Source: Escherichia coli (GTDB taxonomy: Bacteria > Pseudomonadota > Gammaproteobacteria > Enterobacterales > Enterobacteriaceae). Taken from it: a DNA stretch of 2,991 nt. This document shows positions 1-2,991 of this stretch, piece by piece. The translations under genes and the position numbers were made by a program. The notes beneath the pieces were generated by a model. That model was not told the origin of the DNA and did no database searches. It saw only the letters and a program-made list of their open reading frames with translations. Every line of letters begins with the position of its first letter. Positions within the stretch are counted from its first letter, which is position 1. The DNA lies in the NCBI RefSeq assembly GCF_003334335.1, contig NZ_QOWQ01000087.1. The stretch is one strand, 5' to 3'.

Positions 1-203
1 CTTGCTAAATCTTCCGTCGTGACATCAATGTGACCACGTAGTGACACGCCGTGACATGTCGTGACATTTCGTGACGCACTCACCAGAAGGTGGATATACA
101 CCGCCATCACTGTTGCGATTGGCTGTCCTGAGACCCTGGCAATGGTTCGCCATTTGGGATCATTTGGCATGTCATGCCACAATCTGAGCCAGGCATTAGC
201 CAT
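1..203 (-). CDS. 5' portion of a YdaU-like (DUF1376-type) phage replication-region protein; truncated by the left window edge
   Basis: Minus-strand frame is open from ATG at 203..201 to position 1 with no stop. GAGGTG Shine-Dalgarno lies 5 nt upstream of the ATG. Translation begins MANAWLRLWHDMPNDPKWRTIARVSGQPIATVMAVYIHLLVSASRNVTT..., whose Trp-rich N-terminus I recognise from memory as the Rac ydaU family; this is unverified. Position directly downstream of the ydaS/ydaT-like pair matches Rac gene order. Not in the supplied ORF track, presumably because it is partial. Confidence 0.55.
   Translation of the reverse strand, partial: MANAWLRLWHDMPNDPKWRTIARVSGQPIATVMAVYIHLLVSASRNVTTCHGVSLRGHIDVTTEDLA
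17..78. repeat. Six tandem direct repeats with core GTGAC(A) at 10-11 bp spacing, embedded in the 5' coding region of the YdaU-like gene
   Basis: GTGAC occurs at 19-23, 30-34, 41-45, 51-55, 61-65 and 71-75, giving spacings of 11, 11, 10, 10, 10 bp. Four copies are preceded by C and five followed by A or G. A period near 10.5 bp is not a multiple of 3, so the signal is at DNA level rather than a protein repeat. Confidence 0.8.
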
Positions 204-271
204 ACTCACCTCATCTGATACCGAACTTTACCCTCGAACATCCGGAAGAAATCCGGCATGAATATTGTTGG

Positions 272-697
272 TCAATGCACGACAACAGCATTACCAGGCT
301 GACCACCACTGTTAGTCAGGGTGCCCCAGGCGATCGCCGCTGCGACAAAATCATCCACATCTTTCACCAGCCGATCCCTCCGTTCGACGATCTCACGGTA
401 ATATTCAGAGCTGTGACTGCGCATACGGGCCACCAGCAGAGGCGGCATTGCCTTTTCGATCGCCGGTAACAGAGCCTGAATTTTTTCAACAGCATCAGGG
501 GTGTCTTTATCCAGCCAACGGAAAATTTTCTGGGTATTACGAGCCAGGGCTTCCGGATGGCTGTCGTCGTACAGTTCCGGGAACGTCATTCCCAGCTCGA
601 AATACGCTTTGGTAATTTTCGCAGCCGGTACTTTTTCGCCGTCCGGATGCGCCCAGACATTCATCGCCATGCGGATGTGTTCATGCTTGATTTTCAT
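272..697 (-). CDS. ydaT: YdaT-family protein (historically annotated as toxin YdaT; reported as a CII-like regulator in Rac-type prophages)
   Basis: 141-aa ORF. AGGAG lies 8 nt upstream of ATG at 697..695. N-terminus MKIKHEHI... and the length match YdaT as I recall it. Its start overlaps the 3' end of the upstream Cro-like gene by 17 nt, the typical ydaS-ydaT arrangement. Confidence 0.7.
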   Translation of the reverse strand: MKIKHEHIRMAMNVWAHPDGEKVPAAKITKAYFELGMTFPELYDDSHPEALARNTQKIFRWLDKDTPDAVEKIQALLPAIEKAMPPLLVARMRSHSSEYYREIVERRDRLVKDVDDFVAAAIAWGTLTNSGGQPGNAVVVH

Positions 698-962
698 GAA
701 TCAAGCTCCTAGAAAGTGGTTGTGTTAACGTTTTGGTATCTTCCAGCTCGGGCCAAATATTCATCCAATCAAAAGGCCTTAGTTGCTGACGTGTAACTTC
801 ACCATTACTGGCTCGCTCAATAAGGACACATAACGATGCCCCTAACACTTGACCTTTACTCAATGCTTTTCTTAGATAACCGATGCTGGTATCACACTCG
901 CATGCAAACATACGCTGTTCATCTGACGAAAGAGAATTGAGAAATATTCTTAATTCTTCCAT
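681..962 (-). CDS. Cro-like HTH regulator of the YdaS/COG4197 type, first gene of the rightward-equivalent early operon
   Basis: 93-aa ORF. AAGGAG (973..968, minus strand) lies 5 nt upstream of ATG at 962..960. The protein has a C-terminal motif ...QQLRPFDWMNIWPEL... that I associate with the YdaS/Cro-like family. It is divergent from the repressor gene across a 100-bp operator-bearing spacer. Confidence 0.75.
   Translation of the reverse strand: MEELRIFLNSLSSDEQRMFACECDTSIGYLRKALSKGQVLGASLCVLIERASNGEVTRQQLRPFDWMNIWPELEDTKTLTQPLSRSLIHENQA
686..705. promoter_or_regulatory. Perfect inverted repeat CTTGATT-N6-AATCAAG centred on the ydaT-like start codon; candidate protein-binding dyad
   Basis: Sequence cttgatt ttcatg aatcaag at 686-705 has 7-bp perfect arms and a 6-bp spacer. 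It overlaps the ydaT ATG (695-697, minus strand) and sits next to its RBS. I recall a TTGATT-N6-AATCAA site being reported for YdaT-type proteins, but this is from memory and unverified. Confidence 0.4.
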
Positions 963-1062
963 AGCTACTCCTTAGTAAACACAGCAAAGAATACCCGCAG
1001 GTAAACAAAAGTCAATACCCACAGGTTGTTTACCTTGCGGTAATCGCATCTATTATTTACCT
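963..1062. promoter_or_regulatory. Divergent promoter/operator region between the Cro-like and repressor genes, with three TACC-N4-GGTA-type operator sites
   Basis: Sites TACCCGCAGGTA (992-1003), TACCCACAGGTT (1016-1027) and TACCTTGCGGTA (1031-1042). Candidate minus-strand promoter for the Cro-like gene: -35 TTGACT (1015..1010), 16-bp spacer, -10 TATTCT (993..988). Candidate plus-strand promoter for the repressor: -35 around TTGTTTACC (1026-1034), -10 TATTAT (1051-1056) ending 6 nt before the ATG, with no SD, suggesting a leaderless transcript like lambda PRM. Promoter calls are by eye only. Confidence 0.5.
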
Positions 1063-1482
1063 ATGGACAAATATGAATTTAGACGACAGCAACTCATCAA
1101 AATTCGTGATGAGAAATGCGATGGTAAAGCGGTTAACGTGGCCAGAAAGATCGGGCGCGAGCCTTCTTATGTATCAAGAATGTTGTACCCAGAGGGGAAA
1201 AAGGGAAAAAAACGGATCGCTGATGATATGGTGGAGATTATCGAAGAGTCCTTTGGGTTACCCCGGGGATGGATGGATGGTATCGTTTCATCATCAACGA
1301 ACACAGCCTCCAGTTATGAAACAAGGGTTCTAACGCCACGACAACGTATTTTTTTAGATCTCTTAGACGAACTGCCAGAAAGTGAAGCGGATAAATTATT
1401 AAAAACTCTTGAAGAGAAAAAACAGTATTACAATATGATCTACGAAGAAATCCGTAAAAAGAAAGCACAAAACGCATCATAG
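1063..1482 (+). CDS. Prophage CI-type repressor (DicA/RacR-like); N-terminal HTH and C-terminal helical dimerisation-like region
   Basis: 139-aa ORF divergent from the Cro-like gene. The N-terminal half contains the phage-repressor motif ...GKKRIADDMVEIIEESFGLPRGWMDG.... The C-terminal ...LTPRQRIFLDLLDELPESEADKLL... resembles the C-terminus of E. coli DicA as I recall it. No SD precedes the ATG, consistent with a leaderless repressor mRNA. Confidence 0.8.
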   Translation: MDKYEFRRQQLIKIRDEKCDGKAVNVARKIGREPSYVSRMLYPEGKKGKKRIADDMVEIIEESFGLPRGWMDGIVSSSTNTASSYETRVLTPRQRIFLDLLDELPESEADKLLKTLEEKKQYYNMIYEEIRKKKAQNAS

Positions 1483-1524
1483 CTCACCAAACAACTAGTC
1501 ACCAGTTAAGACACCGCAAAAATT

Positions 1525-1561
1525 TACCCATAGGTATTTACTTTTTAAATACCTATGGGTA
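1525..1561. promoter_or_regulatory. Perfect 14-bp-arm palindrome carrying two operator-type sites; candidate operator of the downstream early-left promoter and/or bidirectional terminator after the repressor gene
   Basis: Arms 1526-1539 (acccataggtattt) and 1547-1560 (aaatacctatgggt) are exact reverse complements with a 7-nt loop (acttttt). Each arm contains a TACC-N4-GGTA site (1525-1536, 1550-1561) matching the motif found three times in the 963-1062 region. The stem is followed by a T-rich tract, atccttcttttc. Location 43 bp after the repressor stop and about 190 bp before the next ORF. Confidence 0.5.
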
Positions 1562-1746
1562 TCCTTCTTTTCATACCAACCCACCCCGCCCCACAGAATG
1601 CAGGGCAATACTTCGAGTTACCCGGCAGTGGTCAGGGGTTAAGTAGCCAGCCCGAGGCGTATGAACATGACGGCGGGAACACTTTGTATAACAGCGCAGC
1701 AGGTTTTTGTTCCGCTCCCCCGGCGTTAAGGGGAAATGAGGTCAAC

Positions 1747-1899
1747 ATGGATACTATCGATCTTGGCAACAGCGAATCTCTGGTATGCGGCGTGTTTCCC
1801 AACCAGGACGGCACGTTTACCGCGATGACGTATACCAAAAGTAAAACGTTTAAAACCGAAGCTGGCGCGCATCGCTGGTTAGCAAGAAACTCCGACTGA
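1747..1899 (+). CDS. Small 50-aa protein in the position of ydfA/ydaF in Qin/Rac
   Basis: GAGG (1738-1741) lies 5 nt upstream of ATG 1747. Product is MDTIDLGNSESLVCGVFPNQDGTFTAMTYTKSKTFKTEAGAHRWLARNSD. Size and position (first gene after the repressor, same strand, upstream of dicF) match ydfA/ydaF (about 51 aa); family assignment is from memory only. The 114-aa ORF in the track (1555..1899) is an RBS-less extension starting inside the palindrome. Confidence 0.5.
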   Translation: MDTIDLGNSESLVCGVFPNQDGTFTAMTYTKSKTFKTEAGAHRWLARNSD

Positions 1900-1910
1900 T
1901 GAGGTTGACG

Positions 1911-2312
1911 ATGGAATTTAAAGATTTACCAGTACCATTCCAGGAAATGGCATCTAATGTGGTTCGCTCTCAACTGGCGACTCTTGACCTGAGTACTGTA
2001 GAAAAGGAAACCATCGATACTATATCCGGTAACGTGCGTCGTGCCTTTATAGGTCTGTATGAAGAGAAGCGCCTATTCGGCGGACAGAATTCGACTGAAA
2101 ACAAGAATCAAGCAAATGATGAGAAGCTGAAACACATTATCGCCTTACTTTTGGAAGACGCAAAACGTCTACAGCAACTGGAACCAAATGCAGGCACAGA
2201 GGCCCGCATTTGGATTGCCATGAAATCACTCAAATGTGAAAGCAGTGATTATTTCAAAACAACAATTAAAACTACTCAACTTTCGGGAGAGCTACTGAAG
2301 AAATTGCCATAA
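1911..2312 (+). CDS. Hypothetical 133-aa early-operon protein; occupies the span that E. coli K-12 Qin annotates as ydfB plus ydfC
   Basis: GAGG (1901-1904) lies 6 nt upstream of ATG 1911. An alternative in-frame ATG at 1899 overlaps the upstream stop (TGATG) but has no SD. The ORF is uninterrupted to TAA at 2310-2312. No family recognised. Confidence 0.5.
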   Translation: MEFKDLPVPFQEMASNVVRSQLATLDLSTVEKETIDTISGNVRRAFIGLYEEKRLFGGQNSTENKNQANDEKLKHIIALLLEDAKRLQQLEPNAGTEARIWIAMKSLKCESSDYFKTTIKTTQLSGELLKKLP

Positions 2313-2551
2313 GAGCATGGTCTTTCTCTTGTTCTGCAAGATGAGCATTAATACCTGCTATGGTTTTTTCAAATTTATCTATCTGTTGAATAACAACTTC
2401 GCGGTATACGTTTGTATTTGTACCACCAAGCGCAGCCGTTAATGCAGAAAGCATATTTAGTATCATATCAGTGCGATATGAAAAGAATCCTGATAGCTTC
2501 ATCTTGTTTTTCAATAATAGATTGCAGGGCCTCAATTTGCTTTTTATCCAT
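2272..2551 (-). CDS. Antisense ORF with a strong RBS but an interrupted reading frame: either a 27-aa upstream ORF (2468..2551) coupled to a 64-aa ORF (2272..2466), or a frameshifted gene of about 90 aa
   Basis: Minus strand: GGAGG, 5 nt, ATG (2551..2549). Frame A gives MDKKQIEALQSIIEKQDEAIRILFISH then TGA (2470..2468). One nt later ATG (2466..2464) opens the +1 frame, MILNMLSALTAALGGTNTNVYREVVIQQIDKFEKTIAGINAHLAEQEKDHALMAISSVALPKVE, ending at 2272. The track's 94-aa ORF uses GTG at 2556, which abuts the SD with no spacer. The 3' end overlaps the convergent 1911..2312 ORF by 41 nt, which lowers confidence. Confidence 0.3.
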
Positions 2552-2556
2552 TTCAC

Positions 2557-2885
2557 CCTCCTGAGGGTTGGTAATTAAGGAGTTCTCCACGGGTCAGGTG
2601 GAGTGCGTGCGCCGGACACGGGTGAGCATCCGGCACTGACAGTTTACTGAAAAGGATATATCCCTGAAAAGTCAGGGCATAACACGAAAGCGCCCGGCGA
2701 AGTTAGTCTCTCTGTATAGGTCGTCATTAAATTTTCGTCGACCGCGCGCTTCCGGTTGTGGCACTCCGCGAAATGGCGCGGCGGTAAGTATGGCGGGGTT
2801 ATTCCTTCCCCGTTGAGGACACCGGGTTGTCAGGTTGACCATACGCTTAAGTGACAACCCCGCTGCAACGCCCTCTGTTATCAAT
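2557..2885 (+). other. GC-rich, highly structured non-coding stretch upstream of dicF; probable processed precursor region of the dicB-operon transcript
   Basis: No credible ORF on either strand. Sharp rise in GC content after 2557. Hairpins: gccgga/tccggc (2611-2616 with 2630-2635), ccctga-aaag-tcaggg (2662-2677), ccgcgc/gcgcgg (2742-2747 with 2776-2781), and ggttgtca/tgacaacc (2825-2832 with 2853-2860) with an alternative partner gcggggtt at 2793-2800. In K-12 DicF is excised from a long precursor by RNase E and RNase III. Confidence 0.4.
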
Positions 2886-2938
2886 TTTCTGGTGACGTTT
2901 GGCGGTATCAGTTTTACTCCGTGACTGCTCTGCCACCC
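2886..2938 (+). ncRNA. dicF: DicF small RNA homologue (prophage-encoded ftsZ-targeting sRNA), with its T-run immediately downstream
   Basis: Sequence tttctggtgacgtttggcggtatcagttttactccgtgactgctctgccaccc matches the 53-nt E. coli K-12 DicF as I remember it at 52 of 53 positions (K-12 ...ctgccgccc, here ...ctgccaccc), followed by ttttt. Genomic context fits the Qin order dicA - ydfABC - dicF - dicB: a repressor and small ORFs upstream on the same strand. Confidence 0.7.
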
Positions 2939-2991
2939 TTTTTAAAGTGAATTTTGTGATGCGGTGAATGCGGCTATGCGCACGCGGAACA

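Follow-up and report, generated by a model that had tools for sequence, protein, structure and literature searches.

The immunity region of a lambdoid Escherichia coli prophage: a probable lambda-type switch built from exchangeable modules, and a conserved structured RNA ahead of DicF

The stretch of Escherichia coli DNA analysed here (2,991 nucleotides of contig NZ_QOWQ01000087.1, assembly GCF_003334335.1; further the window) is very probably the early regulatory (immunity) region of a lambdoid prophage, most likely acting as a lambda-type bistable switch and composed as a patchwork of modules from a common pool. The minus strand carries in order a replication initiator gene, a gene of the YdaT family and a cro-like gene, and the plus strand carries a repressor gene, ydfA, an open reading frame (ORF) of 133 amino acids (orf133) and the small RNA DicF; all features described in the initial annotation, and their order, were found in the sequence, either as ORFs or as an Rfam DicF match. 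All of its bases recur without a difference (100% identity) in E. coli JE86-ST05 (NZ_AP022815.1) and in three other genomes. According to RefSeq annotation the JE86-ST05 copy is located in an apparently complete lambdoid prophage integrated beside yccA, where it is flanked on one side by int, xis, an exonuclease gene, a DUF1482 gene (ydfD), and dicB, and on the other by the replication initiator, P, Q, lysis genes, and terminase. The structural, lysis, replication, and integration genes form a full set, and the earlier suggestion of a more intact relative of the K-12 cryptic prophages was right in this respect, the host prophage being far more complete than Rac or Qin.

The presumed switch comprises the following features:
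272–697, minus strand: YdaT-family protein of 141 amino acids (phrog_163, “CII-like activator”; match to PDB 8BT1)
681–962, minus strand: Cro-like repressor of the YdaS family, 93 amino acids (phrog_35)
687–704: putative YdaT operator OM, TTGATT-N6-AATCAA, exact match TTGATTTTCATGAATCAA, at the cro/ydaT junction
988–1056: OR-like region with three TACC-N4-GGTA sites at 992–1003, 1016–1027 (one mismatch), and 1031–1042
1063–1482, plus strand: prophage repressor of 139 amino acids, a domain chimera (phrog_5736)
1525–1561: OL-like region beyond the end of the repressor gene, with putative operators at 1525–1536 and 1550–1561 that form a perfect inverted repeat of 16 bp

The repressor (WP_000362153.1) is 100% identical in three other annotated genomes and 99–100% identical in 16 of 17 viral contigs. 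Its residues 1–86 make up a CI-type DNA-binding domain, 65% identical to residues 1–86 of phage mEp043 CI, and residues 87–139 make up a C-terminal domain of the DicA/Tritos-CI type, which is well conserved with the C-terminal part of the 139-amino-acid CI of phage Tritos (39% overall). The alignment with DicA is limited to residues 89–134 (the last 46 amino acids, 33%), and the NCBIfam DicA model gives 24.5 bits at a cutoff of 101. A tblastn search of the Rac region with the window repressor gave no match, and RacR falls outside phrog_5736. The mEp043 CI is a protein of 228 amino acids with a Peptidase_S24 domain (PF00717), while the window repressor lacks this self-cleavage domain; the pairing of one DNA-binding domain with either an S24 or a DicA-type domain shows that the repressor has evolved by domain swapping.

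A scan of the window for TACC-N4-GGTA revealed six sites against 0.7 expected, a number that no shuffle reached; five of them are grouped in two clusters, and the sixth, a one-mismatch site at 603, is probably due to chance. The three OR sites overlap divergent sigma-70 promoters predicted by a promoter scan, namely a cro promoter directed leftward on the window (−35 at 1015–1010, −10 at 993–988) and a rightward repressor promoter (−35 at 1029–1034, −10 ending at 1056), and since this −10 ends only 6 nucleotides before the repressor start codon (ATG at 1063), the mRNA would be leaderless, as is that of lambda cI transcribed from PRM. The OL-like sites are overlapped by a PL-like promoter (−35 TTTACT at 1537–1542, −10 TATCCT at 1560–1565). 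In the viable lambdoid phage mEp043 the identical operator motif is present three times in OR and twice at the annotated putative PL, to which the OL-like region of the window can be aligned, with spacings of 24–25 and 15 bp, and the assignment of the repressor and its operators is made mainly because mEp043 independently pairs a like protein domain with a like DNA motif.

The Cro-like protein is 71% identical to Cro (gp51) of mEp043 and gives a weak match (E 1e-9) to PDB entries 8C7K and 8CO2 (“antirepressor protein Cro”). Together with Rac YdaS it belongs to phrog_35 (8e-22 and 1e-27), their pairwise alignment covering merely 28 amino acids (54%), whereas Qin DicC is a member of phrog_409. 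The YdaT-family protein is aligned with PDB 8BT1, the YdaT of prophage CP-933P, at E 7e-83 and about 93% identity, the differences lying mainly in the last ~20 residues; it is 31% identical to Rac YdaT over the full length of 141 amino acids (E 4e-13) and 36% identical to Qin YdfX over 83 amino acids. Both Rac YdaT and the truncated YdfX are assigned to phrog_163, and since Qin also possesses a member the YdaT family is not Rac-specific. The CP-933P YdaT was characterized as a DNA-binding tetramer that recognizes TTGATT-N6-AATCAA at the ydaS/ydaT junction and as a CII equivalent for which no toxicity was seen (PMC9986795, PMC8630535), and the roles of CI, Cro, and CII were assigned to PaaR2, YdaS, and YdaT, respectively (PMC8630535). 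In the window the operator at 687–704 spans the ydaT start codon, so that both motif and position are as footprinted for CP-933P YdaT, and it probably marks a PRE-like establishment promoter region. By analogy with the published CP-933P work, from which the function is taken, the window YdaT can be regarded as a likely functional equivalent of lambda CII and not as a toxin.

In the scheme that can be proposed from this layout, the gene content, homologies, operator motifs with their arrangement, breakpoints, assortment of modules, and covariation of the RNA were observed directly, while it is predicted that the repressor and Cro bind DNA, that the promoters are active, how the prophage is induced, and how the RNA is processed in the source strain. 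In the lysogenic state the 139-amino-acid repressor would occupy the OR and OL analogues and silence both early operons, that is, the rightward operon with cro, ydaT, and replication genes and the leftward operon with ydfA, accessory ORFs, DicF, dicB, ydfD, exo, xis, and int. The YdaS-family Cro would serve as a counter-repressor, and YdaT would bind at 687–704 and activate an establishment promoter reading back toward the repressor gene. The leftward transcript would contain a long untranslated region with a structured RNA and then DicF. Given the absence of an S24 domain, induction would probably proceed via an antirepressor and not via RecA-stimulated cleavage; antirepressors inactivate other short repressors of this S24-less kind (DicA and the Gifsy repressors are examples), and both bistability of DicA/DicC and its antirepressor control have been described (10.1101/2023.04.14.536235).

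The patchwork character of the region is evident from sharp breakpoints. Strain E2348/69 matches positions 342–2991 at 97.3% and carries another replication module (breakpoint ~341/342), while phage vB_EcoM-606R7 shares 1–703, 1569–1892, and 2566–2991 and differs in cro and repressor (breakpoints 703/704 and 1568/1569), which indicates that the immunity cassette 704–1568 moves as a unit. In strain B19695 ydfB and ydfC are inserted between 1892 and 1911, and the breakpoint with Qin is at 2565/2566. A count over 5426 complete E. coli genomes gave 822 with the immunity cassette (nearly always at 95% identity or more), 124 with the full orf133/orf92 cassette, and 57 with the arrangement as a whole. 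The viral survey included the first 120 IMG/VR contigs matching the exact 38-nucleotide DicF core, and in this non-random and partly redundant sample the repressor was identified in 98 contigs, being of the DicA type in 30, S24 type in 28, window type in 17, Tritos type in 14, and RacR type in 9. All 17 contigs with the window-type repressor also had the window-type cro. Wherever a cro gene was detected next to a repressor of the DicA, RacR, or Tritos type, it was the one proper to that type, and the S24 type occurred with two cro types. A YdaT-family gene is present beside cro in all five immunity types, each type shows many different combinations of ydfB, ydfC, orf133, and orf92, and RacR/YdaS-type immunity lies upstream of ydfA...dicF in 9 of the 98 contigs. 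According to these data at least six modules are exchangeable, the exchange reaches the level of protein domains, and the region represents free modular assortment in one lambdoid gene pool, of which Rac and Qin are two degraded members.

Several points weigh against this interpretation or reduce its firmness, beside the composition of the viral sample. The Pfam scan of the repressor gave no match, HTH_3 and S24 included, and searches of solved structures and Pfam returned nothing significant for the repressor or for orf133, so that a DNA-binding role of the repressor is suggested by homology to annotated mEp043 CI, by gene position, and by co-variation with the operators, and its binding to these operators is predicted from homology and layout. 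The PL-like promoter, recognized by visual inspection and from the mEp043 alignment, agrees with the consensus at only 8 of 12 positions, and the inverted repeat at 1525–1561 could be a terminator of the repressor gene and possibly nothing more. No antirepressor was identified, a search for a homologue of the antirepressor Rem in the 43 kb examined giving none. Further, the host prophage contains several pseudogenes, including the frameshifted gene at 2272–2551.

These pseudogenes, together with the weakened DicF terminator described below and the cryptic state of the K-12 relatives, would fit a decaying remnant in a defective prophage, in which only DicF and DicB are still maintained by the host. 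This explanation is improbable, since the core switch genes are intact, the repressor is near-invariant, and the cassette shows the above-mentioned conservation in nearly all 822 genomes; moreover, the full phage gene set is present and sequenced phages with a window-like layout exist, namely Tritos and vB_Eco 606R7.

The second alternative concerns the origin of the two arms, for which the remaining protein-coding features and the replication region have to be considered:
3–203, minus strand: N-terminus of the replication initiator, first 67 codons, running off the window edge
19–75: six GTGAC repeats with spacing of 11, 11, 10, 10, and 10 bp, inside the initiator gene
1569–1746, plus strand: leader of the early-left (dicBF-type) operon, Rac-like at 1572–1734 and Qin-like from 1709 onward
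1747–1899, plus strand: ydfA/ydaF-like protein of 50 amino acids, DUF1391 (phrog_751, RefSeq annotation)
1911–2312, plus strand: accessory ORF of 133 amino acids (phrog_1363), to which the family assigns no function
2272–2551, minus strand: convergent accessory gene of 92 amino acids when intact (orf92, phrog_18692), frameshifted here
2566–2763, plus strand: upstream part of the untranslated region before dicF, where Qin similarity resumes at 2566

In the leader the segment 1572–1734, which has no counterpart in Qin, is 87% identical in DNA to the leader that precedes ydaG in Rac, while 1709–1892 is 90% identical to Qin and Rac matches 1743–1880 at 83%. The fold of the leader RNA (1566–1750) was not significant (z = +0.73). 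It was also observed that the Rac-like segment opens with a C-rich, G-poor stretch precisely at the boundary of the immunity cassette. The YdfA-like protein shows 90% amino acid identity to Qin YdfA and 82% to Rac YdaF, and the DNA at 2566–2991 is 92.5% identical to Qin without any match in Rac.

The orf133 product had been considered as an unsplit version of the K-12 genes ydfB and ydfC, and this reading was rejected: it shows no match to Rac YdaG, Qin YdfB, or YdfC, it belongs to PHROG 1363 as against 2061 and 1744, and it coexists with both genes in B19695 (order ydfA-ydfB-ydfC-orf133-orf92) and in O157:H7, where ydfA-ydfB-ydfC are followed by a 124-amino-acid orf133 variant (Z1826). Thus, orf133 is an additional gene and says nothing on the ancestral state of ydfB-ydfC. 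The protein itself is two-part, its PHROG matches being split between residues 1–64 and 69–117, each found in separate smaller phage proteins, and the first ~178 bp of the gene occur in 1445 genomes, compared with 124 for the full cassette. The neighbouring orf92 is broken by one extra homopolymer base (T on the minus strand, A on the plus strand, at ~2483–2486); the two ORF fragments match consecutive parts of phrog_18692, the gene is intact in E2348/69 and B19695, and RefSeq annotates just the 76-amino-acid downstream fragment. The PADLOC defence-system models gave no meaningful match for orf133, orf92, the repressor, or ydfA.

On the opposite side of the window the initiator, which in the source genome has a full length of 345 amino acids with a replisome-organizer-type N-terminus and a DnaT-like domain and is followed by a lambda P-like gene, matches phrog_15931, phrog_1408, and the NCBIfam DnaT domain and is 88–90% identical to the initiators of phage vB_EcoM-606R7 and strain B19695. 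It was rejected as a homologue of ydaU (DUF1376) by full-length BLASTP (E 0.13) and by different N-terminal PHROG families, and it is a positional analogue of both lambda O and Rac ydaU. None of 2000 shuffles contained a GTGAC cluster of the size found in the window. Some 270 bp deeper in the initiator gene there is another array, with five copies (source-genome locus L001, 19749–19790), and two inverted copies are placed between both arrays; the repeats, at a spacing of approximately one helical turn in the window, are probably origin iterons.

With these results the initial annotation of the region as a two-parent hybrid, in which a Rac-type cro/ydaT/ydaU arm is joined to a Qin-type dicA-to-dicF arm with an ancestral unsplit ydfB-ydfC, is very unlikely to be correct, though its separate observations are partly valid. 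The Rac affinity of the minus-strand side holds for YdaT (31%) and for Cro at the level of phrog_35 but does not extend to the initiator, the closest relatives of this side being CP-933P and mEp043; the Qin affinity of the plus-strand side holds for ydfA and the DicF region and fails in the repressor, which is DicA-like in its last 46 amino acids only and has a DNA-binding domain and operators of the mEp043 type. The comparison with K-12 Rac and Qin proposed at that stage thus revealed related genes next to unrelated ones (the initiator, orf133, and the repressor N-terminus), with no similarity to YdaU or RacR. In addition, Qin has its own truncated YdaT gene (ydfX) and Rac its own ydfA-like gene and leader, orf133 is unrelated to ydfB and ydfC, and the dicF arm is freely combined with each of the five immunity types. 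The mosaic as such is real, with sharp breakpoints, while the joining of a Rac arm to a Qin arm does not agree with the data, and the region did not arise from two K-12 parents. Finally, a YdaS/YdaT toxin-antitoxin pair formed by the cro-like gene and ydaT is scarcely credible, in spite of the RefSeq name “toxin YdaT family protein” and the toxicity of ectopically expressed Rac YdaS and YdaT (PMC5700377, PMC5700373), given the non-toxic, CII-like nature of the near-identical CP-933P YdaT, the conserved operator, and the cro/cII gene context.

The relation of this patchwork switch to the named systems can be summarized as follows. CP-933P (Sp12) of O157:H7 has the same CI / Cro-CII-replication layout, shares the YdaT protein except for its last ~20 residues and the operator at the cro/ydaT junction, and likewise carries a division-inhibitor operon on the repressor side; however, the window repressor is not PaaR2 and is not followed by the paaA2-parE2 toxin-antitoxin pair. 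Phage mEp043 (NC_019706) resembles the window in Cro, the CI N-terminal domain, the operator motif, and the 3 + 2 layout with its spacing and differs in having an S24 CI, a lambda-type CII, and an N gene, where the window has a DicA-type C-terminus, YdaT, and ydfA...DicF. Qin shares ydfA, the untranslated region with DicF, downstream dicB and ydfD, and a short S24-less repressor with the DicA C-terminal domain, but its repressor DNA-binding domain, operators, and Cro are different, it lacks the extra Rac-like ~137 nucleotides of the window leader, and the window has orf133/orf92 and no ydfB/ydfC. With Rac the window has in common the YdaT family, the YdaS family (phrog_35), the DUF1391 gene (82%), and the leader (87%), whereas it contains no RacR homologue, its initiator is unrelated to ydaU, and Rac possesses kilR and neither DicF nor dicB.

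The distal part of the window contains two RNA features:
2764–2863, plus strand: structured RNA element of ~100 nucleotides with five helices, recognized by covariation, within a conserved block at ~2741–2890
2887–2938, plus strand: DicF small RNA with its intrinsic terminator (Rfam RF00039)

The DicF match is complete (model positions 1–52 of 52, 70.1 bits at a gathering score of 48, E 1e-14) with one non-canonical pair. The window carries a G-to-A change in the 3′ arm of the terminator stem (minority allele A2935, found in 3 of 125 copies), which produces a C-A mismatch and lowers the predicted stability of the hairpin from −15.9 to −12.4 kcal/mol, and which might raise read-through into dicB. 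In the source genome dicB is situated 188 bp downstream of DicF, and the DUF1482 gene (ydfD) is also there. As a separate observation, positions 249906–250021 of the Aeromonas phage AP1 record (MT713136.1, 254 kb) are 97% identical to window 2876–2991, that is, DicF with its 3′ flank, which suggests either a recent transfer or an assembly contaminant.

The block upstream of DicF is as invariant as DicF itself: in 84 unique dicF loci the per-column mean conservation was 0.95–1.00 at ~2741–2890, compared with 0.77–0.91 further upstream (2561–2740). Moreover, the sequence corresponding to 2755–2877 is present without a Qin-type DicF in phages cdtI and 2H10, in Shiga toxin phages of the Stx2c type, and in Salmonella phage F1055 (82–89% identity), as well as in P1, P7, and SJ46 (78–82%). 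A covariance model finds one copy of the element per locus, P1, P7, cdtI, 2H10, and F1055 included; the copies occupy 1999–2096 in the P1 locus (L130), 2010–2109 in cdtI (L131), and 1510–1613 in F1055 (L133), and the P1 element, which begins ~45 nucleotides after the C1-controlled Pban start, is annotated only as “dicF-like region”. In P7, too, the element immediately follows the Pban promoter. A second collection scan resulted in 97 distinct variants. In the unfitted MAFFT alignment 92.7% of cells can pair, compared with 37–53% when the 3′ partners are slid, and eight pairs are compensatory against 2.1 ± 1.2 in shuffles, none of 500 reaching eight. In the alignment of 97 hits fitted to the model, which leans toward that model, 96.6% of cells pair and compensatory changes are seen in 12 of 25 pairs, where shuffles give 3.0 ± 1.2. 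At least 7 different stem sequences preserve the shape of the middle hairpin, whose loop is pyrimidine-rich, and the insertions and deletions in the loops have lengths other than multiples of three, a pattern that speaks against a coding sequence. The fold of the whole dicF untranslated region (2560–2945) reaches only z = −1.8, and the structure is clear solely from comparative data. No Rfam 15 family matches the element in the window, cdtI, F1055, P1, or P7 loci, and its sequence strings gave no literature match.

Downstream of the element at least 12 sequence classes were distinguished (loci L004, L131, L222, L130, L217, L133, L237, L174, L228, L244, L147, and L190), and 11 of them have a strong intrinsic terminator within 40–125 nucleotides. 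Their 5′ part varies and starts with an A/C-rich, ACAAC-like linker, the terminator stem is often of the GGCGG/CCGCC type, and the Rfam DicF model recognizes the Qin-type class alone; these segments look like a family of DicF-position small RNAs with differing seeds. The cdtI-type RNA, which contains CACAACA, was considered as AgvB and rejected, as no Rfam AgvB match was obtained in the cdtI, F1055, P1, or P7 loci; AgvB is located downstream of PR' (PMC4104026). The Pas small RNAs of a 2026 preprint were likewise set aside as late-region RNAs unrelated to the element.

In K-12 a 190-nucleotide DicF is made, whose 5′ end is an RNase III cut and from which RNase E then frees the 53-nucleotide form (10.1101/2023.04.14.536235). 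Counting 190 nucleotides back from the DicF 3′ end at 2938 leads to ~2749, the 5′ edge of the conserved block, so the element is most simply explained as the body of this known RNA. The flank 2730–2764 and the sequence after DicF (2939–2991) can form a predicted duplex of −20 kcal/mol, a candidate RNase III stem. It is possible, although on balance doubtful, that the element is the 5′ domain of an undescribed modular family of phage RNAs of ~180–230 nucleotides with a function of its own, of which the 190-nucleotide DicF would be the founder. Such a function might consist in read-through of the small RNA terminator into dicB...int (ban in P1) without N protein or in ordered RNase III/RNase E processing; the element may also be a stability domain or a separate regulator. 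An intact element is not obligatory, since Shigella Shiga toxin phage 75/02 (L134, ~1500–1613) has just its 3′ quarter ahead of a DicF-like small RNA with terminator and then a kil gene, and a recombination breakpoint appears to lie inside the element there.

A possible counterpart is the put RNA of phage HK022, which is similarly a structured RNA encoded in cis within an early operon under repressor control, ahead of an intrinsic terminator whose read-through is needed for the downstream genes, in a phage group without an N gene. However, put is ~70 nucleotides long with two stems, while the element has ~100 nucleotides and five helices and lies ~1.2 kb from the promoter in dicF prophages. 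Homology to put was rejected, as the nhmmer E values over the early region of HK022 were 0.6 or higher and the covariance model had no hit in HK022. For a put-like read-through in cis the evidence is positional, namely the terminator in 11 of 12 classes.

In summary, the annotation of the region can be corrected, YdaT being presented as a CII equivalent and the 133-amino-acid ORF not as an ancestral ydfB-ydfC. As textbooks already describe lambdoid immunity regions as modular mosaics and variable dicBF contexts have also been reported previously (PMC5069750), the main finding matters little. Nevertheless, a “hypothetical” protein of 139 amino acids would be the repressor of an immunity type present in about 15% of complete E. 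coli genomes, including enteropathogenic E. coli E2348/69 and some O157:H7 strains; the operator and promoter map of this immunity type is now testable, and the domain swap in the repressor implies a changed mode of prophage induction. The RNA upstream of DicF is the sole feature of the window that might repay more work, as it could explain the existence of the 190-nucleotide DicF and the layout of transcription and processing around DicF-type small RNAs in many prophages and in P1.

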